This document shows positions 2,340 through 23,617 of a stretch of 30,708 nucleotides of DNA, one piece after another. The position numbers were made by a program, and so were the translations under genes. The notes beneath the pieces were generated by a model, which worked only from the letters and a program-made list of their open reading frames with translations, was not told the origin of the DNA and did not search any database. Numbering within the stretch: position 1 is the first letter of the stretch; each line of letters begins with the position of its first letter. Source of the DNA: a virus (lineage: Duplodnaviria; Caudoviricetes); the IMG/VR virus record IMGVR_UViG_3300036783_000276, positions 1-30,708 of that record; one strand, given 5' to 3'.

Positions 2340-2915
2340 TTACCCGATCAGCTCGGCGAAGAAATCGGTGATGGTAACGGACGGGGTGCCGGTGACGGAG
2401 GACAGCGTGATGCCGACGTCGATCTGGGTAGCGGCCTGCGTGTTGAACGTGGACACGGTGCGGGCCGCCGCCGTGATCGGCATCGGGTTCAGCGATGCGG
2501 CTCCGGTCAGGCCGACGTTGCCCCACCAGTGCACCTCGCCGTGGCCGTGCAGGACGCCGTTAGCCGAGACGCCGGTGGCCAGCGAGCGGAAGGTCCCGTT
2601 GTAGACCATCGTGAACGGCCAGGCGACCGCAGACGCCGATATCGCCAGGCCGGTCGTCGCGCATATGGCGGTCTCGGAACCGATCGCAGCCGCCAGCGCC
2701 CCGAAGTAGAACCCGAGGGTGCACGTCGGGGTGGCCGATGTGGAGGTGATCTCGCCGTGCGCCCGCAGCCGCAGCCGCGCCCCGGGCTGGTAGATGCCGC
2801 CCGGGAGCACCGGGAATTCGGTGCCGATCAGGCCGGATGTCAGCGCGGCGGCGGTAACCGCCGTGCCGGCCGCGTTCTGCTGGGGCTGGAGCGGGAACGC
2901 CCACAGGGTTGCCAT
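2340..2915 (-). CDS. Putative virion structural protein, 191 aa
   Basis: Start coupled to the upstream stop (TAATG at 2915); beta-rich composition; operon context. Confidence 0.7.
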   Translation of the reverse strand: MATLWAFPLQPQQNAAGTAVTAAALTSGLIGTEFPVLPGGIYQPGARLRLRAHGEITSTSATPTCTLGFYFGALAAAIGSETAICATTGLAISASAVAWPFTMVYNGTFRSLATGVSANGVLHGHGEVHWWGNVGLTGAASLNPMPITAAARTVSTFNTQAATQIDVGITLSSVTGTPSVTITDFFAELIG

Positions 2916-3178
2916 TACGCTGCCACTCCCCAGGCGGTCAGCCAGCCCGCGTCGTTAGATACCCCGGCCGGGATAGTGACCACGGTGCCCGAGGGGGACA
3001 GGACGACGGTGCCGACTACTGTCGTGCCGATCAGCGTCGCCGTCTTGACGGCCAGGAACCATGTGCCCAGGTCCACGGTGTCACCTGCGGTCATCTTCTT
3101 TATAGCGAACACGGCGGCCTTGTCGGCGTCGCCGTCCTGCCAGGCCAGGACCACCTGGTTCCCTGCTAGCGCTGCCAT
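2915..3178 (-). CDS. Small putative virion protein (MAALAGNQVVLAWQDGDADK...), 87 aa; also the C-terminal part of the 246-aa read-through ORF
   Basis: ATG at 3178 preceded by an AGGAG RBS; ends at a TAA overlapping the next ATG. Confidence 0.65.
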   Translation of the reverse strand: MAALAGNQVVLAWQDGDADKAAVFAIKKMTAGDTVDLGTWFLAVKTATLIGTTVVGTVVLSPSGTVVTIPAGVSNDAGWLTAWGVAA

Positions 3179-3655
3179 TACGTCTCCTAACTCAACCCAG
3201 GAACAGTTGAATGCGCAGTTCGGGTTCACCCCGGCCGGCGTGGAGACCAGCAGCGCCGTCCACACCGTCGAACCCGGCAGCAGGTAGTCCTCCCGGGACA
3301 GCGGGTACTGGATCAGCACTCCCGCAGCCGGGTTGAAGTACCACGTCTTGACCGGCACGAACGTCCCGCCCGACTGGGTGATCGGGGGGATGAAGGCGCT
3401 GAACGCGGAGGCCGTGGACTGGGCGGCGGCCGAGAGCTTGTTCGGGGTGTAGGAGGTCAGGGTCGGGATGTTGGTCGCGTTCCGGGCCAGCTGCACCTTG
3501 ATCCCGGCCGCCGAGGCGGCTGCGTCGAAGGTCACGTCCAGCCAGGTGATCACCCCGTCCGTGTTCGCGCCGCCGGACACGAGGCCGAACACCACCTGGT
3601 TGGGGGTGTTGGCGACGGTGGCGAACGATCCGGTGATCCCGAAGACCGCGCCCAC
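3178..3655 (-). CDS. Putative virion protein (MGAVFGITGSF...FNCSWVE), ~155 aa; ends at a TTA junction and is fused in frame to the next gene if TTA is decoded
   Basis: ORF-track entry 2915..3655 looks like two genes joined by GAG TTA GGA GAC GTA ATG; TAG (3187-3189) and TAA (3178-3180) lie in the +1 frame. Confidence 0.6.
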
Positions 3656-4785: not shown

Positions 4786-5370
4786 TCAACCTACCAGCCG
4801 GTGGTCGGCGTGTCCGGGCTTCATGTAAATGCCGCGCCGGGCGTCCTGGTCATCGAGCACGGGGAACCAGCCAGGCGGCGGGTTCTCCAGGTTGGCGCAG
4901 ATCACGACCGCTCCCGGGGCGGTGTCGCGCCAGACCTTGGCCTCGATCTGGGCCTGGATCCCGGCGTCCCGCGCGACCCGGTTGAACCAGGTGACCTGGG
5001 CCAGGCCGTAGCCGGGGTAGCTGCCCGCGTCGGCGACCGTGGCCCGCAGCCCGAGCGAGCAGGCGGCGGCCACGTACTCCGGCACCCGGTCGAAGCCGAG
5101 GATGTCCAGCCCGAAGATGTCCCGGGCGATCAGCAGCTCGGGGCCGGGCCCGCAGCCCACATCGAGGAACCGGACATTCTCGTCCGGGCCGGGTTCGTAC
5201 CCGTCGATCGCCTGGGCCAGCAGCCCGGTGAACTCGCCGGTGTTGAACGGCATCCACGAGGTGTAGAGCCTGCGGCTGACCGGATCCTGGACCACCTTGC
5301 CCTGCCACTCGCGGGCCAGCTGCGAGGCCCGGTGCATGGTGGCGGCGACGACGGAGGCCCGGGTGGTCAC
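4786..5370 (-). CDS. Class I SAM-dependent methyltransferase, 194 aa
   Basis: Motif I FLDVGCGPG, followed by GFD and VADA. Confidence 0.85.
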   Translation of the reverse strand: MTTRASVVAATMHRASQLAREWQGKVVQDPVSRRLYTSWMPFNTGEFTGLLAQAIDGYEPGPDENVRFLDVGCGPGPELLIARDIFGLDILGFDRVPEYVAAACSLGLRATVADAGSYPGYGLAQVTWFNRVARDAGIQAQIEAKVWRDTAPGAVVICANLENPPPGWFPVLDDQDARRGIYMKPGHADHRLVG

Positions 5371-5510
5371 TACTCCTCCCCGGCGGGAGGCCCGGTATCT
5401 CCCTCCGGCCGTTCCGGGGCGGCCTCCCCGGGCTTCACGCGGTCCCAGTCGGGCTTGCGCCCTCCCCTGGTCTCCGTCGCTGGCTGCGCCGGGTCTCCGG
5501 CCTTGTTCAT
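5370..5510 (-). CDS. Small hypothetical protein, 46 aa (MNKAGDPAQ...)
   Basis: GGAGG RBS before ATG 5510; TAG overlaps the GTG of the methyltransferase. Confidence 0.55.
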   Translation of the reverse strand: MNKAGDPAQPATETRGGRKPDWDRVKPGEAAPERPEGDTGPPAGEE

Positions 5511-5539
5511 GCGATCCTCCCTTGCTGTTCCCCCACGGA

Positions 5540-5869
5540 TCAGCCTGGCTGCTTCAGGACATAGTAGGGCCGGTTCAGGTTGGCTCCGCTGGTCCTGCGG
5601 ACATCCACGATATAGACGCACGGGGCCTCCAGGCCAGGGAACCCGCTGAACCGGACGAGCGCGTCGATCCAGGTTCCCGGGCTGGCCGGGGAGACCGTGA
5701 CGAGCGGCCCGCCGTCATGGCCGTAGCTGTCCAGGGCGGCGCTGTCCATCCACAGCTCCGGGCCGCCGATCCCGCCGGGCGCCTCATCCGGGATCCACCA
5801 CCAGCCCCAGCGGCCCCGGTGGTTATCCTGGCGTGCGTCAGCCGCCTCGTGCCTGGCAGTAACGGTCAC
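5540..5869 (-). CDS. Hypothetical protein, 109 aa
   Basis: ORF fills the operon gap with plausible codon usage. Confidence 0.55.
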   Translation of the reverse strand: MTVTARHEAADARQDNHRGRWGWWWIPDEAPGGIGGPELWMDSAALDSYGHDGGPLVTVSPASPGTWIDALVRFSGFPGLEAPCVYIVDVRRTSGANLNRPYYVLKQPG

Positions 5870-5878
5870 CAGAGCAGG

Positions 5879-6253
5879 CTACCCCCGGCTGATGATGGCC
5901 CACACGGCGGACTGCGAGATGCCGAACCTGACGGCCGCCTGCCGGGTGGTCAGGCCCTGCACCCGGCAGGCGACGATCACCTGGGCGCGGAGTTCCGGGC
6001 CGATCAGCCGCCGGCCCGGCCCCGGGAGGACGGTGAAGACGGTGACCGGGCTCCCGTCCGGGCCGGCGTCGAACCGGGTCAGCACCGCGTGCGCCCTCAC
6101 GCCGTAACGGCGGGCGTGCGCCCGGACCCGCTGGCGCACCCGGAGCCGGGGCTTCCCTTCCTCCAGCCGCCCGGGGACGACCAGCTCGGCCACGGGCTCC
6201 CGGCCGGAGGTGACGGCGAGGACGGCCGCGTACGGCACGGTCGTCTGGTACAT
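5879..6253 (-). CDS. Hypothetical protein with C-terminal helix-turn-helix, 124 aa
   Basis: ATG 6253 after AGGGGGA; C-terminal GLTTRQAAVRFGISQSAVWAII is a typical HTH. Confidence 0.65.
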   Translation of the reverse strand: MYQTTVPYAAVLAVTSGREPVAELVVPGRLEEGKPRLRVRQRVRAHARRYGVRAHAVLTRFDAGPDGSPVTVFTVLPGPGRRLIGPELRAQVIVACRVQGLTTRQAAVRFGISQSAVWAIISRG

Positions 6254-6395
6254 CGATCCCCCTGGACCTGGCTGGCGTCGCGTCCTACGATAACCAGTGG
6301 CCGTGCTCGCCGGCCCGCATCGAATCCTCCAGCGGGGATGAGACAAGGGGCGCCGCCCCAGCGAGCGCCACTCCCTCCCGCGCTACGCTGGGCCC

Positions 6396-7520
6396 ATGCC
6401 ACTGCCAGCATCCGCTTTCCCCCTGCGCACGTCCGGCCCGGAGATCCTCGGCGCGGACGGCTCGGCTGTCCGGCTGGCCGGGGTGAACTGGGGCGGCGGC
6501 GAGCAGGACGAGTGCGTCCCGTACGGGCTGGACAAGCTGCACCGGTCCGAGATCATCAGCCGGATCGCCGGCTGGGGGCTCAACCACGTCCGGCTCCCGT
6601 TCGCGGTCGCCGGGTTCGTCAACGCCGACAGCACGCCCCGGACCGCCCCGGCGCCGCTGGCCCGGACCAGCGCCAACCCGGACCTCCAGGGCCTGACCCC
6701 GTGGGGCATCTACCAGGTCCTGGTGAATGACCTCACCGAGGCCAGGCTGTACGTGGTCGCCGACCAGCACATGATCACCGCCGGGTGGTGCTGCTCCGGC
6801 GCGGACGGGAACGGGCTGTGGTACGCCACGTACTGGCCGCCCACCGCGTTCATCAGTGCCTGGAAGCTGGTGGCCACCCGGTTCGCGGCCAACCCGAGGG
6901 TCGGCTACGACATCCACAACGAGCCCCGCGCCACCACGGTCAGCGGGAAGACGGTCACGCCCACCTGGGGCGACGGGAACGGCTGGACCGACTTCCGGCA
7001 CATGTACGCCGACATGGCCGGCAAGATCCGCGCGATCGACCCGGACTGCCTGATCTTCTGCGAGGGCCTGAACTACGCCAGCGACCTGACCGGCTGGAAG
7101 GCGCACCCGGTGACCGGCCCGGGGATCGTCGCCTCCGTCCACGACTACTCCTGGTTCCACCCGGCCGGCCAGTCCGTCACGGACTACTACGCCCAGATGG
7201 ACGCGAACGCCGGGTACCTGGTCCAGCAGGGCACCGTCCCGTTGTGGGTGGGCGAGTTCGGCGCGGACACCGACGCCGCCGACGCGGCCCGGACCGCCGG
7301 CTGGCTGCCGCAGTTCATCTCCTGGGCCGCCGCCCGGGGCGTGCACTGGTGCTGGTGGGAGCTGAACGCGACCGGCGTCAAGGGCACCGAGCCGGTCACC
7401 AACACGCCGAAGGTCGCGGCCGGCGCGCGGGAGTCGTTCGGGCTGATCTCCGGGTACGACTGGCTCGGCAGCCAGGTGAACATCCTGGGCCAGCTCGCCC
7501 CGATCATGCCGGCGCCATGA
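6396..7520 (+). CDS. Glycoside hydrolase family 5 (cellulase family A), 374 aa
   Basis: GVNWGG, NHVRLPF, catalytic YDIHNEP, VHDY, nucleophile WVGEFG and WCWW motifs; TACGCT -10 box 6 nt before ATG. Confidence 0.9.
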   Translation: MPLPASAFPLRTSGPEILGADGSAVRLAGVNWGGGEQDECVPYGLDKLHRSEIISRIAGWGLNHVRLPFAVAGFVNADSTPRTAPAPLARTSANPDLQGLTPWGIYQVLVNDLTEARLYVVADQHMITAGWCCSGADGNGLWYATYWPPTAFISAWKLVATRFAANPRVGYDIHNEPRATTVSGKTVTPTWGDGNGWTDFRHMYADMAGKIRAIDPDCLIFCEGLNYASDLTGWKAHPVTGPGIVASVHDYSWFHPAGQSVTDYYAQMDANAGYLVQQGTVPLWVGEFGADTDAADAARTAGWLPQFISWAAARGVHWCWWELNATGVKGTEPVTNTPKVAAGARESFGLISGYDWLGSQVNILGQLAPIMPAP

Positions 7521-7619
7521 TCTGGTACGAGCTGAACACGCTGGCCGGGCTGTGGGTCCCGGCCGCCGCCGGGTGCGGCTGGCTGGCCTGGATGCTCGTG
7601 CGCAACCGGACCCGGTTAG
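7517..7619 (+). CDS. Small membrane peptide (MIWYELNTLAGLWVPAAAGCGWLAWMLVRNRTR), 33 aa up to a TTA-G junction
   Basis: ATGA coupling to GH5; hydrophobic; in-frame TTA at 7616-7618 with TAG in the +1 frame; otherwise it reads on antisense to the next gene up to 7786. Confidence 0.4.
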
Positions 7620-7789
7620 GGCACCCGGTTGCGGTCCCGCGCGCCGTAGTGGCGGCGGCTGCGCATCCGGCGGGTGAGCAGCCAGGTCGCGACCTTGGCC
7701 CGCAGCCAGGGCTGCCTGATGATCCAGCGGCCGAGAAGGACGCCCGCTCCCGCTGCCGCGACGCAGGCCAGGACGATCCAGGGTGACAT
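7616..7789 (-). CDS. Small membrane protein, 57 aa (MSPWIVLACVAAAGAGVLLGRWIIRQ...)
   Basis: Not in the ORF track; TACCCT -10 box 6 nt before ATG; N-terminal TM helix and basic tail; TAA stop. Confidence 0.55.
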   Translation of the reverse strand: MSPWIVLACVAAAGAGVLLGRWIIRQPWLRAKVATWLLTRRMRSRRHYGARDRNRVP

Positions 7790-7868
7790 GCTTCCAGGGT
7801 ACGGCGGGGCCCCCGTGCGTTACTACGCTCCAGGGGCCCCGTGATCCCGGCGCGGGACACCGGTCACG

Positions 7869-8885
7869 CTACCGGAACAGCGACCGGTACGCGACCTCCC
7901 ACAGCTTCCACCCGTCCTCGATCACGAACCGGGCGGCCATGGCCCGCGCCGCCTCGCCCATCTGCGCCCGGAGCGCGTCGTCGGAGGCCAGGACGGACAG
8001 GTACTTCAGCCACTCATGCTCCTGCTTCACCAGGAACCCGTTCACCCCGTGCACGATCACCGGCCGGTAGGCGGGCACGTCGGAGCAGACCGCCGGGATG
8101 CCCCGGGCGCCGTACTCGATCGCCTTGATCGCGGACTTGGAGTTGCTGAACGCGGTAGGCCAGACCGGGCACAGGCCGATGTCGAAGTCGATCAGCTGGT
8201 AGTACCGGTACGGGTGGTCGTTCACCTGGACCCAGGGCGCGAAGAACACCCGGTCGCGCGGGGCCCGGAACGTGGGCCGGTAGTCGGTGCCGCCCAGGTG
8301 CAGGTCCCAGCGGGGGAACCGCTTGAGGAACCGGCGGACCGGCTGGGCCACCTGGCCGATGTCGACGCCGTGGCTGGCGCCGCCCATCCAGCCGACCCGG
8401 GGCCGGTCCCGGGCCGGGCGCGGCGGCAGGCCCAGGACCCAGCCCGGGAGGTGGTTGGGGAGCACGGCGACGTTGCCGCTGTACTCCCGGAGCACCTCGG
8501 CCAGGGGCTCGGTGGAGACGGTCACCAGGTCGGCCACGGCCACGGCGTGCTCCACCGCGTCCCGGATCTCCGGCTTGCCGTATAGCTGGTACGCCTGCCA
8601 GTTTTCCTGCGTGATCGACCACAGGTCGTCATCGAGTTCGTAGACGAGCTTGGCGAACAGGCTGGCCCGGCGCCACACCTCCAGCCCGTCGTGCTTGTTC
8701 CACCGCTGCGCCACGATGACGTCGTGGCCCTGGAGGTCCCGCAGGGTGACCGGAGGCGGGTGGAACCGGTCCCCGGCGTCGATGTAGGTCACGTCGTGGC
8801 CGTGGCGGCCCAGCTCCGTCAGCGGTGTCTGCATCCGGTACCAGGCACAGCCTGAGCCGCCGTCGTGGCCGGCGAAGATTCTCAC
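7869..8885 (-). CDS. Glycosyltransferase, GT-B fold (GT4-like), 338 aa
   Basis: GCAWYR, VYELDDDLW, VTVSTEPL, VGWMGGASH, DIGLCP, KSAIKAIEYGARGIP and VNGFLV motifs. Confidence 0.9.
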   Translation of the reverse strand: MRIFAGHDGGSGCAWYRMQTPLTELGRHGHDVTYIDAGDRFHPPPVTLRDLQGHDVIVAQRWNKHDGLEVWRRASLFAKLVYELDDDLWSITQENWQAYQLYGKPEIRDAVEHAVAVADLVTVSTEPLAEVLREYSGNVAVLPNHLPGWVLGLPPRPARDRPRVGWMGGASHGVDIGQVAQPVRRFLKRFPRWDLHLGGTDYRPTFRAPRDRVFFAPWVQVNDHPYRYYQLIDFDIGLCPVWPTAFSNSKSAIKAIEYGARGIPAVCSDVPAYRPVIVHGVNGFLVKQEHEWLKYLSVLASDDALRAQMGEAARAMAARFVIEDGWKLWEVAYRSLFR

Positions 8886-9028
8886 GGCTTCTCCCTGATC
8901 CGGTCGGCGGTCCGTTCCAGGACCCGGATGAGGACCCGCAGCGCGAACGTTTCCTTCCGCGCCCGCTCGTGCAGGATCCGGGCCGCGCGGCGCAGGCAGT
9001 CCGCGTCGGACCCGGCGCAGGCCCTCAC
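8882..9028 (-). CDS. Small hypothetical protein, 48 aa
   Basis: GTGA coupling at both ends. Confidence 0.5.
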   Translation of the reverse strand: MRACAGSDADCLRRAARILHERARKETFALRVLIRVLERTADRIREKP

Positions 9029-9264
9029 TCGCTTACCCGCTCGGGCCAGTGCCAGGTCCCGGGCGCCTTGCCGTCCTCGTCCTGCCGGCACGGGCGGCTG
9101 AGCGCGTACGCGGGGAGCGGCTGGCCGCCGGGCGGGAACAGGGTCAGCGCGAGCGTGCCGTCCGGCAGCACCGCCGTGACGATGGCGGCCTGGCACGCAT
9201 CCAGCGCCAGCTCAGCCCGGCTGTCCGTCACGCAGTGCACGATCCGGCCGGGGGACGGCCTCAC
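9025..9264 (-). CDS. Conserved small phage protein, 79 aa (PSPGRIVH...AAIVT...GTWHWPER)
   Basis: GTGA-coupled start at 9264; motif pattern of a common small phage family. Confidence 0.7.
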   Translation of the reverse strand: MRPSPGRIVHCVTDSRAELALDACQAAIVTAVLPDGTLALTLFPPGGQPLPAYALSRPCRQDEDGKAPGTWHWPERVSE

Positions 9265-9557
9265 TGGATCTGCCCGGGGACGGCCTTGACCAGGCCGGGC
9301 TGGCGGGCCACGGTCAGCCCGGACTCGCTGAACGAGTCGCGCAGCGCGGTCATGGCGTCCACCCAGCCCTGGGCTTCCTCCCGGTCCTTGATGGGCACCG
9401 ACAGGGTGGTGTTCCCGCACCGGATGGTGAGGAACCCGCAGGTGCCGTCCGGGAGCGGGACCAGCCCGGTCACCATGATGGTCCGGACGCCGGTGTCGAG
9501 CAGCGTGTTGGCCACGTCGAACAGCGGGGGCAGGCCCACCTGGGTTGCCTCGCTCAT
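9261..9557 (-). CDS. Hypothetical protein, 98 aa
   Basis: Strong GGAGGAG RBS; coupled stop. Confidence 0.7.
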   Translation of the reverse strand: MSEATQVGLPPLFDVANTLLDTGVRTIMVTGLVPLPDGTCGFLTIRCGNTTLSVPIKDREEAQGWVDAMTALRDSFSESGLTVARQPGLVKAVPGQIQ

Positions 9558-9566
9558 GATCTCCTC

Positions 9567-10175
9567 CTAGCGGTAGGCGCTCGGCCACACATCGCAGGTC
9601 TCCTCGTCCACGCGGACGTGCCGGATGCCGGCCCTCATCCACGCCCACACCAGGTCCCAGTCCTCGAACTGGCCGCCGTGGTCCCAGCCCGCCACGTCCA
9701 GGATCTCCGCCCGGTGCATGATCATCGGGGTGCCCACGTTCCCGCACGCAACCGGGCCGGTGCCGATCACCGAGCTGCCGTTCGGCCCGTGGGACAGCAT
9801 CCGGGAGACCGCGAACCCCGCGCCCGGGTCCGCGTCCAGCGCCGCCGCCAGCAGCGTGCAGTGCGACGGCCGGAGCGCGTCGTCGTCGTCGCAGTAGGCG
9901 ATGTAGGCGCCCTGGGCGATCTCGCAGGCGTAGGCGCGGGCGTGGTGGCCGTAGTGCGGCTCCGGGTCGTGCTCGGGCAGCTCGCCGTAGTACACCCGGT
10001 TCCAGCCGTCCAGCCACGGCGTGATCATCCTGGTCCGCAGCACCGGGTCCGGGCCGTCGCCGATGACCAGGTGCTCCAGCTCGGGGTGGTCCTGGGCCTG
10101 GACCGAGGGCAGGCACCGGTCGAACAGGTAGTCGTGCCGCTGCCAGGTGGGAGTGACCACGGTGACCAGGCTCAC
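9567..10175 (-). CDS. Glycosyltransferase family 2, 202 aa
   Basis: GTG 10175; VTVVTPTWQR, GDGPD, YIAYCDDDD (DxD) and EDWDL motifs. Confidence 0.9.
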   Translation of the reverse strand: MSLVTVVTPTWQRHDYLFDRCLPSVQAQDHPELEHLVIGDGPDPVLRTRMITPWLDGWNRVYYGELPEHDPEPHYGHHARAYACEIAQGAYIAYCDDDDALRPSHCTLLAAALDADPGAGFAVSRMLSHGPNGSSVIGTGPVACGNVGTPMIMHRAEILDVAGWDHGGQFEDWDLVWAWMRAGIRHVRVDEETCDVWPSAYR

Positions 10176-10408
10176 CCCAGTTCCTCCAGGGCCTCGGGCG
10201 GCAGGTAGGCCTTCATGCGGACCAGATCGCAGGTGACCAGCCGGTGCTCGGTAAGCGGATCCGGCTTCCTGGCGATATCCTCCAGCCGGGCCACCAGGCA
10301 CAGCAGGTCGATCAGCTTCACCGGGATCTCGTCGTCACCGTGCTCCCGGATCCAGTCCGGCTCAGGACCGGGCTGCGCCCAGCGGTCTACCACGAACTCC
10401 AGGCTCAC
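10172..10408 (-). CDS. Hypothetical protein, ~78 aa
   Basis: GTGA coupling at both ends. Confidence 0.55.
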   Translation of the reverse strand: MSLEFVVDRWAQPGPEPDWIREHGDDEIPVKLIDLLCLVARLEDIARKPDPLTEHRLVTCDLVRMKAYLPPEALEELG

Positions 10409-11145
10409 CCGGGCCACCACTCCGGGATGTTCAGCCTCGCGTTGAACGCGGCCAGCGACTCCGGGGTGAACGGCGTGCCGCCGAGCTTGGCGATGTCGGC
10501 GTTGAGGCCGCCGTCGCCCTGGCGGCGGGAGTAGGCGTGCCAGGCCCGCAGGTTTTCCCCCGTCTGTGCATAACTGCGTGCGTAAGTCTGGTCGTGCCCG
10601 GCGCCGAGGGTGTAGTGGTGGTGCGGCAGCATGACGTCATCAAGGTACTCGTGGCCGCAGGCCTGGCACCAGGCGTACCAGGCGACGTCCACGTACATGT
10701 GGCTGATCTCCGGCGGCCCGGCGTAGCCCAGGATCCGCACCACGTCGGCGCGCATGAAGATGTGGCAGCTCAGGCTCCCGGGCTCGCGCGGGTACCGGTC
10801 GTTGGCGAACGCGAACAGCTCGCGGCGCAGCGAGTCCCGGATCCGGTCGTCCCAGCCCCAGGTGTCGCAGGTGTTGTCGTCGCCGACGTGGCCGATGAAC
10901 TCGAACTGCCCCCAGGTCATCACGGCCAGGTAGTTGATCCAGGCGGTGACGTAATGCAGGCCGTCGCTGATCACGTAGCCGGGGCCGGCCGGGTACTCGT
11001 CCCGGGTCTCGTCGTCGGCGTCCAGGCCGATCAGCAGCGTGGTCCGGCCGGCGCAGGTCCGCTGCATCGACTCCCACAGCCGGGCCGCGTTGCCGGGCCT
11101 GCGCAGGCTGGGCACCAGCAGGCCGAGCCGCCCGTCGCCGTCCAT
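10405..11145 (-). CDS. GT2-like glycosyltransferase, 246 aa
   Basis: TGATG-coupled ATG 11145; LLVPSLRRP, LDADD, HVGDD, HMYVD and HHHY motifs. Confidence 0.8.
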   Translation of the reverse strand: MDGDGRLGLLVPSLRRPGNAARLWESMQRTCAGRTTLLIGLDADDETRDEYPAGPGYVISDGLHYVTAWINYLAVMTWGQFEFIGHVGDDNTCDTWGWDDRIRDSLRRELFAFANDRYPREPGSLSCHIFMRADVVRILGYAGPPEISHMYVDVAWYAWCQACGHEYLDDVMLPHHHYTLGAGHDQTYARSYAQTGENLRAWHAYSRRQGDGGLNADIAKLGGTPFTPESLAAFNARLNIPEWWPG

Positions 11146-11810
11146 CAGCAGCTCCCCGGGGCGGCCAGCACGGTCAGCCACGGGTAAGCGGGCAGCGGCT
11201 TGACGTCGGCGAGCGCCTGGCGGCCGGTCAGGAACGTGTCGCCGGTCTTCTCCCGGTACAAGTAGACCGGCGGCGGCGGGATCCAGGCCTCGGTCTGGCA
11301 CCGGCCGGTGGCGATCACCCGGTCGCCCCAGGCCTTCTCAGCGCCGTACCCGCCCGACCACTGCCCGGCCACGGCCAGCTCCCGGCGGATCGGGTTGAAC
11401 TGCATGACAGAGCGGAGCAGCCGTTCCGGGCCGTCCTCCCAGCGGGGGTGCCGCAGCGAATGCTCCACCGGGATCTTCTGCTCGCCGTCGCGGGTCCAGC
11501 CGATGGCGAACCCGACGTAATCCGGCTCGGAGCCCAGCGCGATCAGCACCCGGGCCAGCCCGTCCGGGGCGAGCAGGTCGTCGTCATCGATGCAGGACAC
11601 GTAGTCGGCCTCGCTGGCCGCCACCAGCGCGGCGGTCTTCTCGCCGTAGGAGACGGTCAGGTTGTCCCGGTACAGCAGCACCCCGACCCGGCCCAGCGCC
11701 TCGCAGGCGGTGATCTGAGCGTCCAGGCAGGCCAGCAGCTCGCACAGCGTCTCGTGCCTATGGGGGATCGAGGCAATGAGCAGATCCCAGGTGGGGCAGG
11801 CGCGGGTCAC
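11145..11810 (-). CDS. GT2-like glycosyltransferase, 221 aa
   Basis: GTG 11810; LLIASIPHR, GEKT, YVSCIDDDD and FNPIRRELA motifs. Confidence 0.8.
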   Translation of the reverse strand: MTRACPTWDLLIASIPHRHETLCELLACLDAQITACEALGRVGVLLYRDNLTVSYGEKTAALVAASEADYVSCIDDDDLLAPDGLARVLIALGSEPDYVGFAIGWTRDGEQKIPVEHSLRHPRWEDGPERLLRSVMQFNPIRRELAVAGQWSGGYGAEKAWGDRVIATGRCQTEAWIPPPPVYLYREKTGDTFLTGRQALADVKPLPAYPWLTVLAAPGSC

Positions 11811-12172
11811 GTCAGCAGCCTCGCGTTCTCCGGCAGCCGGGTCGTGTCGGTCTCGTACGCCTCCCCCGAGCGCGGCCCCCGGGTGAAGACCAGCACGGTG
11901 GTGTCTTCCAGGGCCTTCCAGGCGTGCGGGATGCCGGCTTGCTCGATGATCATCTCGCCCGGCAGGTGGACCGAGGACACCCGCCCGTAGCCGTCGATGC
12001 TGGCTGAGGTGAACACCATCTTGCCGGAGACGATGTAGGTCCACTGGGTGGTCAGCTTGTGGACGTGGTTGCCGCGCACCGCCCCGGCCTTGGTGGTGAT
12101 CTCGGTCACCGCGTCGACCTGGCCGAGGAGGTCCTGGATGACGCCGCGCTCGTCCTCGTACCGGTCAGTCAC
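11807..12172 (-). CDS. Cupin (RmlC/FdtA-like NDP-sugar isomerase/epimerase), 121 aa
   Basis: EDERG, RGNHVHK, QWTYIVSG and PHAWKALED cupin motifs; adjacent to sugar genes. Confidence 0.8.
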   Translation of the reverse strand: MTDRYEDERGVIQDLLGQVDAVTEITTKAGAVRGNHVHKLTTQWTYIVSGKMVFTSASIDGYGRVSSVHLPGEMIIEQAGIPHAWKALEDTTVLVFTRGPRSGEAYETDTTRLPENARLLT

Positions 12173-12386
12173 GGTAGATCACCAGCCCGTCCGTGGTGCC
12201 GATCTGCTGCCAGCCGGTCTCAGGCGCCTTGTAGTCGCAGCCCTCGCCGTCCCAGCCGGGGCACTCCCACGTGGTGGCGGTGTAGCCCTGCGCTTCCCCG
12301 GCGCGCGGTTTCATCAGGCCGTGCACGGGGCATTCCGGCGTCATCTGGATGTACAGCTGGGCAGGGCCGGTGCGGATCTCAGCCAC
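12165..12386 (-). CDS. Small Zn-ribbon-like protein, 73 aa
   Basis: CPVHG...WECPGWDGEGC. Confidence 0.6.
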   Translation of the reverse strand: MAEIRTGPAQLYIQMTPECPVHGLMKPRAGEAQGYTATTWECPGWDGEGCDYKAPETGWQQIGTTDGLVIYRD

Positions 12387-13563
12387 GGTAGATCCTGGGG
12401 GCCGGGAGCGGGATGATGACCTGGCCCCGGTAGCCGGCCGCGCGGAGCTTGGGCACCACGTCGCTGGCGATGTGCCAGCAGAACAGGACCGCGTTCGGGG
12501 GCTGCTCGCGGATCATCTCGGCCTCGTCCGCGACCATGATGGCCGTGCCTGGCATGACGGTGCCGATCTTAGCGGAGGCGGGCACCTCGGCGATCTTGCG
12601 GATCCAGCGGCCAAGGCCGGCGAAGTGGATCAGCGGGGTGGCCCGGGTGGCGGCGCCGATGCCCCAGACCGGGCCGTCCTCGCTGGCGATCTCCAGCAGC
12701 CGGCCCAGCTGGTCGCGGGCGGTCTCGGCGCGGGCCTGGAGCTGCTGCGGCCGGCGGGCGGCCCAGGTGCGGAACGACCCGCCGTGCGTGCCGATGTTCT
12801 CGGTCCGGGTGACCAGGAAGCCGTGCATCTCCAGCAGCCGGCCGAGCGTGGCGGGGGTGAAGAACCGCAGGTGCTCGTGGTACACGGTGTCGATCTGGAG
12901 GCCGTTCAGGACCGAGGCGGCGTCGTGGTTCTCGGTGATGAAGACGCCGCCGGGCTCCAGCAGCAGCGAGACGCCCTGGATGAAGTCGTGCGGGTCGGCG
13001 ACGTGGGCCAGGACGTTGGACGCGGTGATCACCCGGGCCTGGCCGAGGGTCTTGGTGATGTCGCCGGCCAGGTTCCAGGTCCAGGGATGCTGCTCGACCG
13101 GGATCACCTTGTCCCGGCACGCGGCGGCCTGCCCGGTGGGTTCCACGGCGAGCAGCCGGGCCTCGGGGTCGGCGCGGCGCACCGCGTCCAGCAGGGTGCC
13201 GTCGTTGGCGCCGATGTCCACCACCAGGTCCCGGGACCGGAGCAGCGGGGCGATCTCCCGGGCGAGCTTGCCGAAGTGCATCCGCATGGCCCGGGTGTTG
13301 CCGGTGGCGTACGGGTGATCGGGCGGGAACACCTCGTCCCGCTCCACCTGGTAGCTGAGCTGGATCAGCCCGCAGGTGCCGCATTCGAGCAGCCCGAGCG
13401 GGTACCGGTTCCCGTCGTCGCGCTCAGCCAGCGGCTGGTCGCCCAGGTCCAGGATCTGGATCATGCCGTCAGCCCGGTCCTCGCCGCAGAGCTGGCAGTG
13501 CTGCTCCGGGACCGGGCCGGCCAGGAAGGTGTCCAGGAGCTTCCGGGCCAGGTCCGGGTTCAC
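12379..13563 (-). CDS. NDP-hexose C-methyltransferase (NovU/TylC3-like), 394 aa
   Basis: CQLC, LDLGDQPLA, CGTCGLIQL, VVDIGANDG, NVLAHV, DTVYHEHLRFF, THGGSFR, GIGA and FCWH motifs. Confidence 0.9.
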   Translation of the reverse strand: MNPDLARKLLDTFLAGPVPEQHCQLCGEDRADGMIQILDLGDQPLAERDDGNRYPLGLLECGTCGLIQLSYQVERDEVFPPDHPYATGNTRAMRMHFGKLAREIAPLLRSRDLVVDIGANDGTLLDAVRRADPEARLLAVEPTGQAAACRDKVIPVEQHPWTWNLAGDITKTLGQARVITASNVLAHVADPHDFIQGVSLLLEPGGVFITENHDAASVLNGLQIDTVYHEHLRFFTPATLGRLLEMHGFLVTRTENIGTHGGSFRTWAARRPQQLQARAETARDQLGRLLEIASEDGPVWGIGAATRATPLIHFAGLGRWIRKIAEVPASAKIGTVMPGTAIMVADEAEMIREQPPNAVLFCWHIASDVVPKLRAAGYRGQVIIPLPAPRIYRG

Positions 13564-13790
13564 TGGATCTCCCGGTATCCGAATCCGAACCCGTGATTAG
13601 GCACGGGCAGCCCGGCCGCGAGCCGCCGCCGCATGACGGTCTCGGCTGCTGCCTGCTCTGCTTCATCAGCGGTGTTCTTGTCGTACCTGGCCTGAAGCTC
13701 GGTCATGCGCTCATCCCATTCCGGGGTATGCACGATGCCGCGCGCACGCTCCTCGTTGTACTGCGCGAGCGCCTTAACCCAGTCGGTCAT
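13560..13790 (-). CDS. Hypothetical protein, 76 aa
   Basis: ATGA/GTGA coupling; YNEERARGIVHTPEW. Confidence 0.65.
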   Translation of the reverse strand: MTDWVKALAQYNEERARGIVHTPEWDERMTELQARYDKNTADEAEQAAAETVMRRRLAAGLPVPNHGFGFGYREIQ

Positions 13791-14758
13791 GTGTTCTCCC
13801 GGTACCAGGCGACGGTCAGCGGCAGGCCCCGGGTGAACGGGGTGCGGGGCAGGTCCACGCCGGCGCCCCGGGCCAGGGCCGCGATCTTGGCGACGTCCGG
13901 CAAGCGGCGCGGCGGTGAGCCCTGCGGCAGCTTCCCGGGCTCCAGCTTGATCCGCCGGCCGTAATACTCGGCGGTCAGGTGCGCGACCTGGCTGATGGTG
14001 ATCTCGTCCATGGTTCCGGCGTGGTAGATCCCGGCCGGGGTACGCGGGTCCAGCAGCAGGGCCAGCTGGGCGGTGCAGTCGCCGATGAAGCAGAACGACC
14101 GGGTTTCCAGGCCGGACCCCTGGACGGGGAACGGGATGGGCCCCTCGGGGTAGCTGGCGGTGAGCCGGTTCATGCGCAGGCAGAACTCGGGGATGACGTG
14201 CTCTTTCCCCATGTCCGGGCCGTAGATGTTGTGCGGCCGGGCGATGATCACCCGGTCCAGCACCCCGGCGCGTTCCCAGGCCAGCGCCATCAGCTCGCAG
14301 GCGATCTTCCCGCCGCCATAGGAGTACCGGGGGTTCAGCGGGTCCGGGACGGTCAGCGGGACGGTCTCCGGGGTGGGTACCTGGCCGGCCACCTGGTAGG
14401 CCTCGGAGGAGCTGATCAGCAGCAGGTCGGCGCAGCCGGTGACCGCGCAGGCGTCCAGCACGGCGAGCATGCCCCGCAGCGCGACGTCCAGGACCTGGCG
14501 GGGCTCGGCGTAGAAGGTCTGGGTGCCCTGGATGTAGGCGGCGTGGATCACCGCGTCGCAGCCCTGCATGGCGGCGGCCACCCGCACCGGGTCCCGGACG
14601 TCGCCCTCGTGCACGTCCAGGTCGGTCCAGGCCGGCAGGCGGCCCCGGCGGCCCCGGCTGAAGTCGTCCAGGACCGAGACCGAGTGGCCGTCCGCGAGCA
14701 GCCGGACGGCCAGGTTGGATCCGATGAACCCGGCACCGCCGGTTATCAGGTAGCGCAC
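13787..14758 (-). CDS. NAD-dependent NDP-sugar epimerase/dehydratase (extended SDR)
   Basis: TGGAGFIGS, SSSEAY, YGGGK (YxxxK), RPHNIYGP and RSFCFI motifs; GTG 14758 after GAGGAG (the ORF track starts at 14779). Confidence 0.92.
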   Translation of the reverse strand: MRYLITGGAGFIGSNLAVRLLADGHSVSVLDDFSRGRRGRLPAWTDLDVHEGDVRDPVRVAAAMQGCDAVIHAAYIQGTQTFYAEPRQVLDVALRGMLAVLDACAVTGCADLLLISSSEAYQVAGQVPTPETVPLTVPDPLNPRYSYGGGKIACELMALAWERAGVLDRVIIARPHNIYGPDMGKEHVIPEFCLRMNRLTASYPEGPIPFPVQGSGLETRSFCFIGDCTAQLALLLDPRTPAGIYHAGTMDEITISQVAHLTAEYYGRRIKLEPGKLPQGSPPRRLPDVAKIAALARGAGVDLPRTPFTRGLPLTVAWYRENT

Positions 14759-14841
14759 GGCAGCACGGCTCCTCGTCATGGCGGGTGTCGTGGCAGCTCC
14801 CTGCCCCCTGGCCGGGCGGGCCGTGCCCTAAGCCAGGATAG

Positions 14842-15528: not shown

Positions 15529-15685
15529 CTAACCAGTAGTGACGGCGCCCGCCGACCGCGTGCCCGGCCGCCCCGGCGATCCACAGCACCGCGCCGACGA
15601 CGAGCAGGATCAGCCCGATGACCCACAGCAGGTAGATGCCGAGGATGAAACCGATGATGGCGAGCAGCGCTCCGACGATGATCAT
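15529..15685 (-). CDS. DUF6131-like small membrane protein, 51 aa ending GGRRHYW, followed by TTA-G instead of a stop
   Basis: MIIVGALLAIIGFILGIYLLWVIGLILLVVGAVLWIAGAAGHAVGGRRHYW matches the actinobacterial family pattern; TAG is in the +1 frame at 15529-15531. Confidence 0.75.
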
Positions 15686-21102: not shown

Positions 21103-21182
21103 GCTCTGTAACCCTTCGTTTACCTGGCTAAACCCGGGCGCAACGATCGCCCCTGCGTTACCGTTCACGGGAATGCCCGGCA

Positions 21183-22826
21183 TCAGTGACCACTCCCGTT
21201 GACACCGTTGAGGACGGCCGTCTTCGGCGCCGGTATCCACGCGCCTACGTACTCCGGTTCGTCCCGGTACCCGCCCAGCCGTCCCCACTGGCCGCTGCCG
21301 CCAAGGCCGCCAGCTCGCTTGCCCGGGGCGTACCGACCGTAGTCCCGGGCCAGATCCTGGATGACGTGCTCCGGCAGGGCGATCCCGAGCCGGCTGAAAG
21401 ACTCAGCTATATCACGCACGTCGCGCAGGTCAGCCCCTCCGCGCCAGTCGTTATGACCCCGTTGCTGGCCGATCGTCTGGGCCAGCACCGACTCCGGCCC
21501 GGGGACCGGCTGGCCGGAGTCGGCGGCGATGCCTTCCTTCTCCAGCTTCTCCAGCCGGTCCACAGCCAGGTCCATCTCCAGCGTGATCGCATCGAGCATC
21601 GAGTTCGGGATGCCACGGATCGACCTGGACATCGCCACCATGACCTCCAGCGGGATGTTCTCCCCGCCGGCCTTGCCGGGCAGCGGCTCCAGGTCCTCCA
21701 GGTCACGCAGCTCATCGGTGGTGCGCAGGCCCATGTCCCGCTGGAGCTTGTAAATCTCGGTCCGCGTCTTCAGATCGGTCTTCAGGAGGGCATCGCTGTC
21801 GAAGCGGCAGTACCGGTTGGACGGGAGGATGTCAAAGAACGCGGTCTCCAGCCGGACCAGCCACGGACGCAGCGCCTCGATCACCTGGAGCGTGCTTTGC
21901 TCAACGGTATTGTAGGTGAGCGAGTCACCCCTGGTGCCGCCGATGCGGTCGGGAGGCAAACCCAGCACCGAGGCCATCTGGGTGGCGTTCATCCGCATCG
22001 CATCAATAAACTGCGCCTCAGAAGGCGGCACCGTTACCGGTTTGTAATCCCAGTCCCTTCCATATACAAGTGGCTCCCTGCGGCGGATTGTCGCAGTCAG
22101 CATCGAACGGATCTCCTCAGCCTGATCCGCATCGATCTCTATTTCGGAATTCTGGAACGTGCCTGGGGGGAAACCGCCAGCCCTGTACCAGTCGGTGCCG
22201 TACCGCTGGGCTTCCAGGCCGGACAGGATGGTCAGCGCGAACGCGCGCAGCAGCGAGATCCCCTCCAGTCGGCCGGCCAGGGAAAACGCCTTGACGTGGA
22301 ACAGCTCGTCTCGCTTCATGAGACGGCCGTAGACATAAATCCTGGTCCGCAGCGGGTTCCACGGCTGCATCTCGTCGTCCTGGACGCTGACGTCATCGGG
22401 GGGAATCCACTCGATCCCGGTGGGGAACCCGTAGCCGTCCCGGCCGGTGATGAACCCCCAGGCGTTGCCCTGGAGGACCAGGCTGGTCATCATCGTGAAC
22501 AGCCAGTCGAACAGGGTGCCGTCCACGGACGGGTGGTCGAACAGGGTGGGCCCGTGCCAGCGGACCGCGTGTCCGTCCGGGCCGTTGCGGGCGTAGATCT
22601 TCAGCGGCAGCGCGGACACCGAGTCGGCCAGCAGCCGGGCGCCGGAGTAGAGCGCGGGCAGGCCGAGGGCCTCGTCCTGGCCGTACATCGACCGGGACGG
22701 GTGGACCGGGCCGCCCTGGCTAAAAACTTCCAGAAAGGACTATCCCACGGGCGGTAATCGCCAGGGGACACCTCCTATAACGCGCTGCTCAGATCGGCTA
22801 GCCTGGATGCGTTCTATGAGACCCAC
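21183..22826 (-). CDS. Portal protein, HK97 family; full length (~544 aa) requires two recoding events at TTA codons (22755-22757, 22721-22723); the ORF track shows only 21183..22688
   Basis: LLADSVSALPL, LVLQGNAW, LFHVK, GISLL, EAQFID and LRPWLVRLE motifs; GTG 22826 with GGAGGAGG RBS is in frame with ATG 22688 but blocked by TAG at 22740-22742. Confidence 0.9.
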
Positions 22827-22864
22827 TGGATAACTCACCTCCTCCCTATTGCTAGAATGGAAGG

Positions 22865-23581
22865 ATGGGAAGAGGGACGCCAGATCTGACAGGCCAGTGT
22901 TTCGGGCGGCTTCGCGTGCTCATGCGCGACTGGGATGCACCTGGCCCGCACGTTAAATGGCTGTGCTGGTGCGCGATTGAACTCGGCGGTTGCGGCACGA
23001 TGACGTCGGTAGGAAGTGGCGCGCTGCGCTCGGGGATGACCCAGAGCTGCGGCTGCTTGCATCGTGAGCGGACATCTGCCGCCAACTCGGCTAGGCCCAA
23101 GGCTGCCCGTGTTCCGGTACACAGGAATGCCAAGACCCGCGCTAAAACGGCTGATCCGGCTACTTGGAGAGCTAGCTCCCCGTCCTACGGGAGCTGGCGC
23201 AACATGATCCGGCGTTGCACCAAGCCAGAAGATCCGCGCTACCCGGACTGGGGCGGCCGTGGCATTACCATCGACCCGCCCTGGCTGGACTTCACGAACT
23301 TCCTGGCCGACATGGGCGAACGACCGCCGGGCATGACGCTGAACCGGAAGGACAACAACGGTCCTTACGCCAAGTGGAACTGCGAGTGGGCCACCCCGCA
23401 TGAACAGCAGATGAACAGCCGGAACTTCAAGCTGATCCCGGAAACCGTCGCCGAGATCAAGCGCTTGCACGCCTCGGGGATGACCCTGATCGCCATCGGC
23501 CGGCAGATGAACCTGAACCGGCATACCGTGTCGAGAGCCCTGAGCGGCAAGACCCGGCAGCGCAAAAAAGAGCGCACCTGA
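22865..23581 (+). CDS. Free-standing HNH (homing-type) endonuclease with C-terminal HTH, 238 aa
   Basis: DLTGQCFGRLRV, WLCWC..CG, SCGC, YGSWRNMIRRC, WGGRGI, FLADMGERP, LNRKDNNGPY and NCEWAT...N motifs; TAGAAT -10 box 6 nt before ATG. Confidence 0.9.
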   Translation: MGRGTPDLTGQCFGRLRVLMRDWDAPGPHVKWLCWCAIELGGCGTMTSVGSGALRSGMTQSCGCLHRERTSAANSARPKAARVPVHRNAKTRAKTADPATWRASSPSYGSWRNMIRRCTKPEDPRYPDWGGRGITIDPPWLDFTNFLADMGERPPGMTLNRKDNNGPYAKWNCEWATPHEQQMNSRNFKLIPETVAEIKRLHASGMTLIAIGRQMNLNRHTVSRALSGKTRQRKKERT

Positions 23582-23593
23582 GCCAGATACGTC

Positions 23594-23617
23594 TTGGATG
23601 CGCTCGATCAGCCCCAC
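23594..23617 (-). pseudogene. Orphaned original 5' end of the portal gene (MGLIERIQ) left upstream of the HNH insertion
   Basis: GTG GGG CTG ATC GAG CGC ATC CAA with GAGGAG RBS; the same 8 residues as 22803-22826 but different codons. Confidence 0.8.

Follow-up and report, generated by a model that had tools for sequence, protein, structure and literature searches.

A TTA Codon at the Stop Position of a Predicted Jelly-Roll Protein Gene in an Uncultured Soil Phage as a Probable Gene-End Signal

Introduction

UUA-triggered translational bypassing has been described for the large terminase of the Streptomyces phage phiHau3 and of two Streptomyces prophages, and it is experimentally supported for the phiHau3 terminase (accessible text of PMC10732093), the proposal of bypassing being credited to Smith et al. 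2013 (via PMC10732093, PMC5009743). In this type, found in 3 of 100 terminases, internal sites join the frames of one essential gene (PMC10732093). Regarding the host, the upstream ORF of Streptomyces adpA carries UUA then G/A before the downstream start, inside the Shine-Dalgarno region, and a 1-nt push onto a stop has been proposed by the authors (PMC10732093). In the mitochondrial code of Thraustochytrium, UUA is a stop codon (accessible text of PMC10752896). Finally, in the byps of Magnusiomyces capitatus mitochondria and in T4 gene 60, an unused or stop codon in the A-site triggers a hop whose landing is often imperfect, the gene 60 insert being tied to a homing endonuclease (accessible text of PMC5009743).

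Here, we describe an in-frame TTA between two genes, A and B, of an uncultured soil phage whose virus record is the whole stretch of DNA analyzed (hereafter the window; 30,708 bases, 70.3% G+C). As in the phiHau3 type, a rare UUA directly follows the putative take-off codon, amid genes that otherwise avoid UUA, the gap would be short (7 or 10 nt in the phiHau3 type) and the working product would arise only with UUA undecoded (PMC10732093). The phiHau3 type has a matched landing; at the present junction, a GAG identical to the preceding codon lies at +7, within the ribosome-binding site of gene B. In contrast to phiHau3, the TTA stands here at a gene end and its non-decoding would separate two proteins: no conserved frame is resumed, the landing being followed by one codon and then a stop. 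Conserved frames are resumed after landing at the portal sites of this phage, and internal TTA sites, unlike those of phiHau3, are common in the present group, mainly in the portal gene. The junction would work like phiHau3 UUA recoding but without its defining resumption of a conserved frame.

The minus strand of the window carries terminase, portal, protease and capsid genes. Relatives of the capsid were found in genomes of several actinomycete genera at 48–59% identity only; in the host search, two of the 401 genomes screened from a single family gave a portal match, at 40–41%. Head genes and tail-like genes flank a sugar-modifying block (4786–14779) with glycosyltransferases, an epimerase, a C-methyltransferase, a cupin and a GH5 cellulase (6396–7520, opposite strand). 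An ARAGORN call of tRNA-Thr(cgt) at 6055–6145 (minus strand), inside a predicted HTH gene, is probably spurious.

The Junction and Its Support

On the minus strand, the junction reads TCC TGG GTT GAG TTA GGA GAC GTA ATG GCA and comprises the following features.

3191..3193, minus strand: GAG, last codon of the gene A family and P-site codon at UUA entry
3188..3190, minus strand: TTA at the stop-codon position of the gene A family (TAA in homolog locus L001, TGA in L002)
3187..3189, minus strand: TAG in the +1 frame
3184..3188, minus strand: AGGAG, ribosome-binding site (RBS) of gene B, 5 nt before its ATG
3184..3186, minus strand: second GAG, landing codon at +7, inside AGGAG
3178..3183, minus strand: ACG TAA in the +1 frame (ACG 3183–3181, TAA 3180–3178)

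The TAA at 3180–3178 overlaps the ATG of gene B (3178–3176) as TAATG. The three outcomes proposed in an earlier, sequence-only reading of this DNA were all reproduced: decoding of TTA 3190 as Leu gives a read-through product of 246 aa (junction peptide WVELGDVM), a +7 hop leads to ACG and then TAA and yields 156 aa ending WVET, and a +1 shift meets TAG at once, a +1 slip or a stop at this codon both giving 155 aa ending WVE.

The in-frame TTA is real. Contigs from three of four soil runs (two once the possible source is set aside) carry it unchanged and span the junction without gaps. The X1 contig (2300–3633), whose run is possibly the source sample, has 0 differences; the X2 contig (2406–3532) likewise has 0 differences, and the X4 contig (3057–3395) has one, away from the junction. 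The X3 contigs do not span the junction. In the predicted fold of 3130–3250, UCCUGG pairs with UUAGGA around the UUA (z = −1.31).

The Two Proteins and Their Homologs

The TTA lies between two reading frames.

3191..3655, minus strand: gene A (155 aa), modeled as a jelly-roll beta-sandwich of 10 strands, the final one finishing at W-V-E
2915..3178, minus strand: gene B (87 aa), which has a separate RBS and ATG and encodes a predicted small all-beta protein

The model of the gene A product, a ten-strand jelly-roll (pLDDT 74.7), matches uncharacterised phage jelly-rolls, and no PDB match was obtained at E ≤ 0.001; no Pfam or PHROGs family was assigned to gene A and no match was found in the genome contigs searched. 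Among nine matches, eight are stand-alone proteins of 151–158 aa, the ninth being the window's own cluster (246 aa). Six of these stand-alone homologs end exactly at WxE and one has a divergent tail; in the last (P0010), the C-terminus is WNEL, one Leu beyond the family end. The two homolog loci with DNA read GAG TAA (L001) and GAG TGA (L002) at the gene A end. Homologs are encoded as two separate genes, the first ending at about WxE.

The product of gene B is modeled as a small beta protein (pLDDT 68.9) with weak matches only. It is stand-alone in P0013, G001 and G005/L161, and in G001 the gene order is swapped, B being upstream of A; no match was found in viral contigs by pattern search. Look-alike clusters have stand-alone sizes (154–175 aa for A, 82–93 aa for B). 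Outside the window's 90% cluster, no fused A–B homolog was found, either among the homolog matches or in a weak search of longer proteins (7,997 candidates scored), and the fused reading is present in 3/3 members of that cluster. Joined by a 5-residue linker, the two complete domains could fold. Judging by fold and by gene context, including a minor tail gene two genes downstream of gene B, A and B may be virion (tail or decoration) proteins.

TTA at Gene Ends and Inside Genes

The window holds a second gene-end TTA.

15530..15685, minus strand: DUF6131 gene, 51 aa, with TTA at 15532–15530, then G; bridged by X1, X2 and X3

By Pfam and PHROGs profile, this gene ends at W51 and the next codon is TTA, whose read-through would append 234 extra codons. 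In three relatives, TAG or TGA ends the gene at the W51 position or one residue before it. In G002, the corresponding sequence is TGG TTA C, in which TTA recurs and the base after it differs. A TTA at 21111 was considered as a third site and discarded, since the ATG at which homologs begin (17 sequences) is found 6 nt after it.

Stop positions were surveyed in 127 loci of 104 groups, drawn from viral and metagenome records. In a loose set of 1,573 homolog-stop sites, TGA was counted 351 times, TAG 173, TAA 88 and TTA 17; among other sense codons, TCA was counted 9, TCG 5 and TTG 2 times. In a strict set of 418 sites, each with at least three different homolog tails ending there, TTA occupies 10 sites, more than any other sense codon, and non-TTA sense codons occupy 82. 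The ten do not include TTA 3190, for which homolog loci with DNA number two. Strict-set TTA extensions have a median of 41 codons vs. 3 for other sense codons (p 0.002); they are not longer than those of one-step neighbours of stops (p 0.12), and in the loose set no excess length over other codons was seen for TTA (p 0.15). Depending on the duplicate-removal key, gene-end TTAs total 18 or 17; the related records behind these counts are not mutually independent. A segment-score expectation of 0.03 is biased low, the score penalising TTA, and the strict count was used instead; a GC3 scan for gene-end TTAs, returning mostly antisense frames, served for leads only. In actinomycete prophages, TTA was found at 0 of 528 homolog stops (26 loci; L073 is from the unpublished genome G014). 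A TTA at the stop position of the gene A family is more than chance.

Gene-end TTA sites include major capsid and terminase ends. TTA replaces the stop of the capsid gene in L039 (G008) and L093 and of the terminase gene in L089 and L098, read-through adding 176, 38, 5 and 104 codons, respectively. The L035 gene end reads GCG TTA C GCA GGT TAG, a layout like that at 3190. At L003, which falls outside both totals, an ORF ending ...LHK continues as AAA TTA GGAG N5 ATG, i.e., the same succession of TTA, RBS and start as at 3190 with no matched landing.

Inside genes, TTA occupies 0 of 9,161 codons in the window (47 genes; A and DUF6131 were truncated where their families end, and the portal 5′ part was excluded). 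Aligned interior codons of relatives contain 23 in 105,364, by eye mostly in leaders or antisense frames. Eight related records (L036, L207–L213) have arrays of 15–39 tRNA genes, in which neither Leu-TAA nor Leu-TAG was found; Leu-CAA, -CAG and -GAG occur in 7/8, Arg-TCT in 7 and Lys-TTT in 8, and the weight of the missing Leu-TAA is lowered by the arrays lacking Leu-TAG too and sharing ancestry. A tRNA pattern search, run without positive control, matched 0/201, and short Leu tRNAs are not among the long tRNAs examined in G010/G011. As tRNA-Leu(TAA) is present in Streptomyces controls and in 5/5 checked loci of the Actinoallomurus family sample, a conditional UUA state is possible.

Portal Inserts and Other Internal TTA Codons

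22721..22760, minus strand: portal gene (start GTG 22826), 5′ end with two TTA inserts totaling 9 nt; bridged by X1, X3 and X4

The two inserts read CGA TTA C CGC (+7, TTA site 22757) and TTT TT AGC (+2). Portal homologs read WRPWDSPFWKFSQGG, and the window matches only with +7 and +2 skips at the two TTAs. Moreover, reading the first TTA as Leu leads to TAG five codons later, a zero-frame TAG being enclosed by the inserts. The portal thus needs TTA skipped, which fixes the polarity of the system: particles need UUA unread. In relatives, TTA inserts occur in 19 of 37 distinct portal 5′ ends. The 23 best portal skips restore the motif and span 2–11 nt, +7 being the commonest (6/23); their landing is a synonymous codon in 15/23, matches two of three bases in 7 and one base in 1.

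An HNH gene precedes 6/19 insert-bearing vs. 1/18 plain portals, some of the upstream stretches being short, and the inserts may serve as endonuclease protection, UUA skipping just tolerating them. In the window, an HNH endonuclease gene (plus strand, 22865–23581) is flanked by an old, truncated start of the portal gene (23617) and by the new start (22826), which is recoded and AT-rich; the arrangement (22826–23617) resembles free-standing homing in which the 5′ end was exchanged. In the L019/L020 and L021 portals, the alignment breaks near residue 260–277, with about 1.1 kb inserted, possibly an intron or an endonuclease.

Across the group, an in-frame TTA was found at 37 of 131 frame breaks, most others being antisense-frame artefacts by eye. 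TTA-linked breaks lie in L039 (~868), L126 (~3868), L096 (~2581) and L137 (~18379), and break sequences include GAA TTA CT GAA and AAA TTA AAA in terminases and TTT TTA C in a glycosyltransferase.

What the 7-nt Geometry Tells

The sequence-only reading had assigned to the junction the 7-nt geometry of the portal site. This comparison stands in that the portal TTA sites are real and +7 is their commonest skip; that a 7-nt hop is the design of gene-end TTAs is not supported, as only 3/18 of them have, within 12 nt, a matching landing codon and then a stop. Stop–RBS junctions of the group use TAG in 41/51 cases, mostly as TAGGAG. As these junctions are common, the gain of one T after a final GAG supplies TTA, a +1 TAG and a landing GAG together, and the +1 TAG (3187..3189) is likely the ancestral stop of such a TAGGAG junction. 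The landing GAG is by itself not above chance, the final Glu codon plus TAGGAG supplying it, in line with the caveat of the sequence-only reading that the match could be incidental, this GAG being part of the AGGAG RBS.

What is informative in this geometry is only the TAA that follows the landing by one codon. Among 51 comparable junctions, TAATG overlaps number 0 and TGATG overlaps 5. A landing followed by a stop occurs at 6/18 gene-end TTAs vs. 10.0% of 630 ordinary ends (p 0.006) and, with the landing within 12 nt and the stop within one codon, at 3/18 vs. 3.7% of the same 630 ends (p 0.026). TTATG overlaps, of which one start is confirmed by a homolog (L122), were found at 5/18 gene-end TTAs, above a genome background of 5.8% but not clearly above the 30/186 of other NNA sense codons. 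A +1 stop as a general rule was rejected, such stops being if anything rarer than expected (3/18 vs. 38% of ordinary ends). Neither a +1 stop nor a matched landing exists at several gene-end TTAs, e.g., at the capsid end of G008; provided that such ends are genuine, release has to be possible at UUA or close to it. The common feature of gene-end TTA sites is the TTA itself.

Proposed Mechanism and Alternative Explanations

We consider it quite probable that TTA 3190 is the end signal of gene A: the ribosome would stall at UUA, separate proteins of ~155 and ~87 residues would be made, and the fusion would be an off product. The gene-end TTAs, the lack of interior TTA and the portal inserts together suggest that UUA is probably not read as Leu during late-gene translation. 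For the ribosome, halted with Glu-tRNA on GAG, three ways of finishing would then be open. Direct release at the UUA, giving ...WVE, has in our estimate a little under an even chance; neither RF-1 family nor peptidyl-tRNA hydrolase (Pth) family members were found in 12 related records, which weighs against it. A +7 hop onto the second GAG, with a stop at TAA and the product ...WVET, is a tentative candidate, and a +1 slip onto UAG, also giving ...WVE, appears unlikely, as it would entail poor P-site re-pairing from GAG to AGU. Gene B would be translated from its own AGGAG and ATG. Synthesis of the 246-aa protein would require charged tRNA-Leu(UAA), a state in which the portal would be truncated; this protein is likely an artefact of annotation or the off form. 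The site itself likely arose by insertion of one T into GAG TAGGAG.

The sequence-only reading had favored a switch, in which a functional A–B fusion and the separate proteins are both wanted and tRNA-Leu(UAA) sets their ratio via the +7 hop. In favor of it are the perfect GAG–GAG match at the commonest portal offset, the TAA one codon on, overlapping ATG and rare by chance, the similar layout at L035 and the modeled folds, in which A and B both look like complete beta domains. However, no fused homolog was found beyond the window's own 90% cluster (in part by a weak search of 7,997 candidates), the order of A and B is swapped in G001, the other gene-end TTAs would append unrelated tails of up to 234 codons and L003 carries TTA-GGAG-N5-ATG without a matched landing. 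A tuned ratio is also disfavored by the portal, where a Leu reading runs into a stop. A fusion made on purpose is hence unsupported, and we regard the switch as improbable.

A plain stop loss by one mutation, UUA being read as Leu to give a harmless constitutive fusion beside B, has the following in its favor: TTA is one step from a TAG junction or from TAA, all three members of the window's cluster have the fused reading, and the 82 non-TTA sense codons of the strict set indicate that other sense codons do stand at homolog stops. Nevertheless, it leaves unexplained that the rarest codon leads at stop positions, and it accounts neither for a second case within 30 kb nor for a portal requiring UUA unread, which makes it very unlikely. 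An assembly error, with an extra T in GAG TAG, would by a single T account for the junction and the DUF6131 site alike, but it is hardly credible given the gapless contigs of three of four runs (two without the possible source) carrying TTA and the TGG TTA C of G002. The reading of TTA 3190 as an end signal is thus the one we retain.

Conclusion

Regarding the other described systems, as their accessible texts present them, UUA stands here, as at adpA, just before a start and in the Shine-Dalgarno region; unlike that short host regulatory ORF, gene A is a phage gene of full length, and only 3/18 gene-end TTAs have a +1 stop. UUA at protein ends and its absence from gene interiors recall Thraustochytrium, UUA being found at homologous stop positions and nearly unused as interior Leu. 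Unlike that fixed organelle code (table 23), TTA ends here only ~3% of conserved gene ends (10/336, with 326 stops) and is also hopped inside genes. The HNH gene before the portal is reminiscent of gene 60; byps and gene 60 repair inserts inside genes, none being described as ending a gene in the accessible text of PMC5009743. In a literature search mostly outside subscription journals, we found no paper describing phage genes that end at TTA or bypassing in a portal gene.

In its accessible account, published phage UUA recoding concerns three terminase genes; in this soil phage group, a single codon seems both to end genes and to trigger hops group-wide. With WVE, WVET and WVELGDVM as distinguishable outcomes, the junction offers a small system for testing how a bacterial ribosome behaves at a sense codon that is not read, and it bears on whether hops have a regulatory role, an open aim according to the accessible text of PMC5009743. 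Moreover, standard gene calling fuses or extends genes ending in TTA and truncates the portals of such phages.

Finally, UUA may serve this phage group both as a fourth, conditional stop codon and as a trigger of hops, so that with scarce host tRNA-Leu(UAA) the inserts of portal and terminase genes are skipped and correct ends result for genes including those of capsid and terminase, an idea that we regard as rather doubtful. If true, charged tRNA-Leu(UAA) would truncate the portal and let gene ends run into junk tails or fusions, and particle production would be switched off genome-wide when UUA is read.
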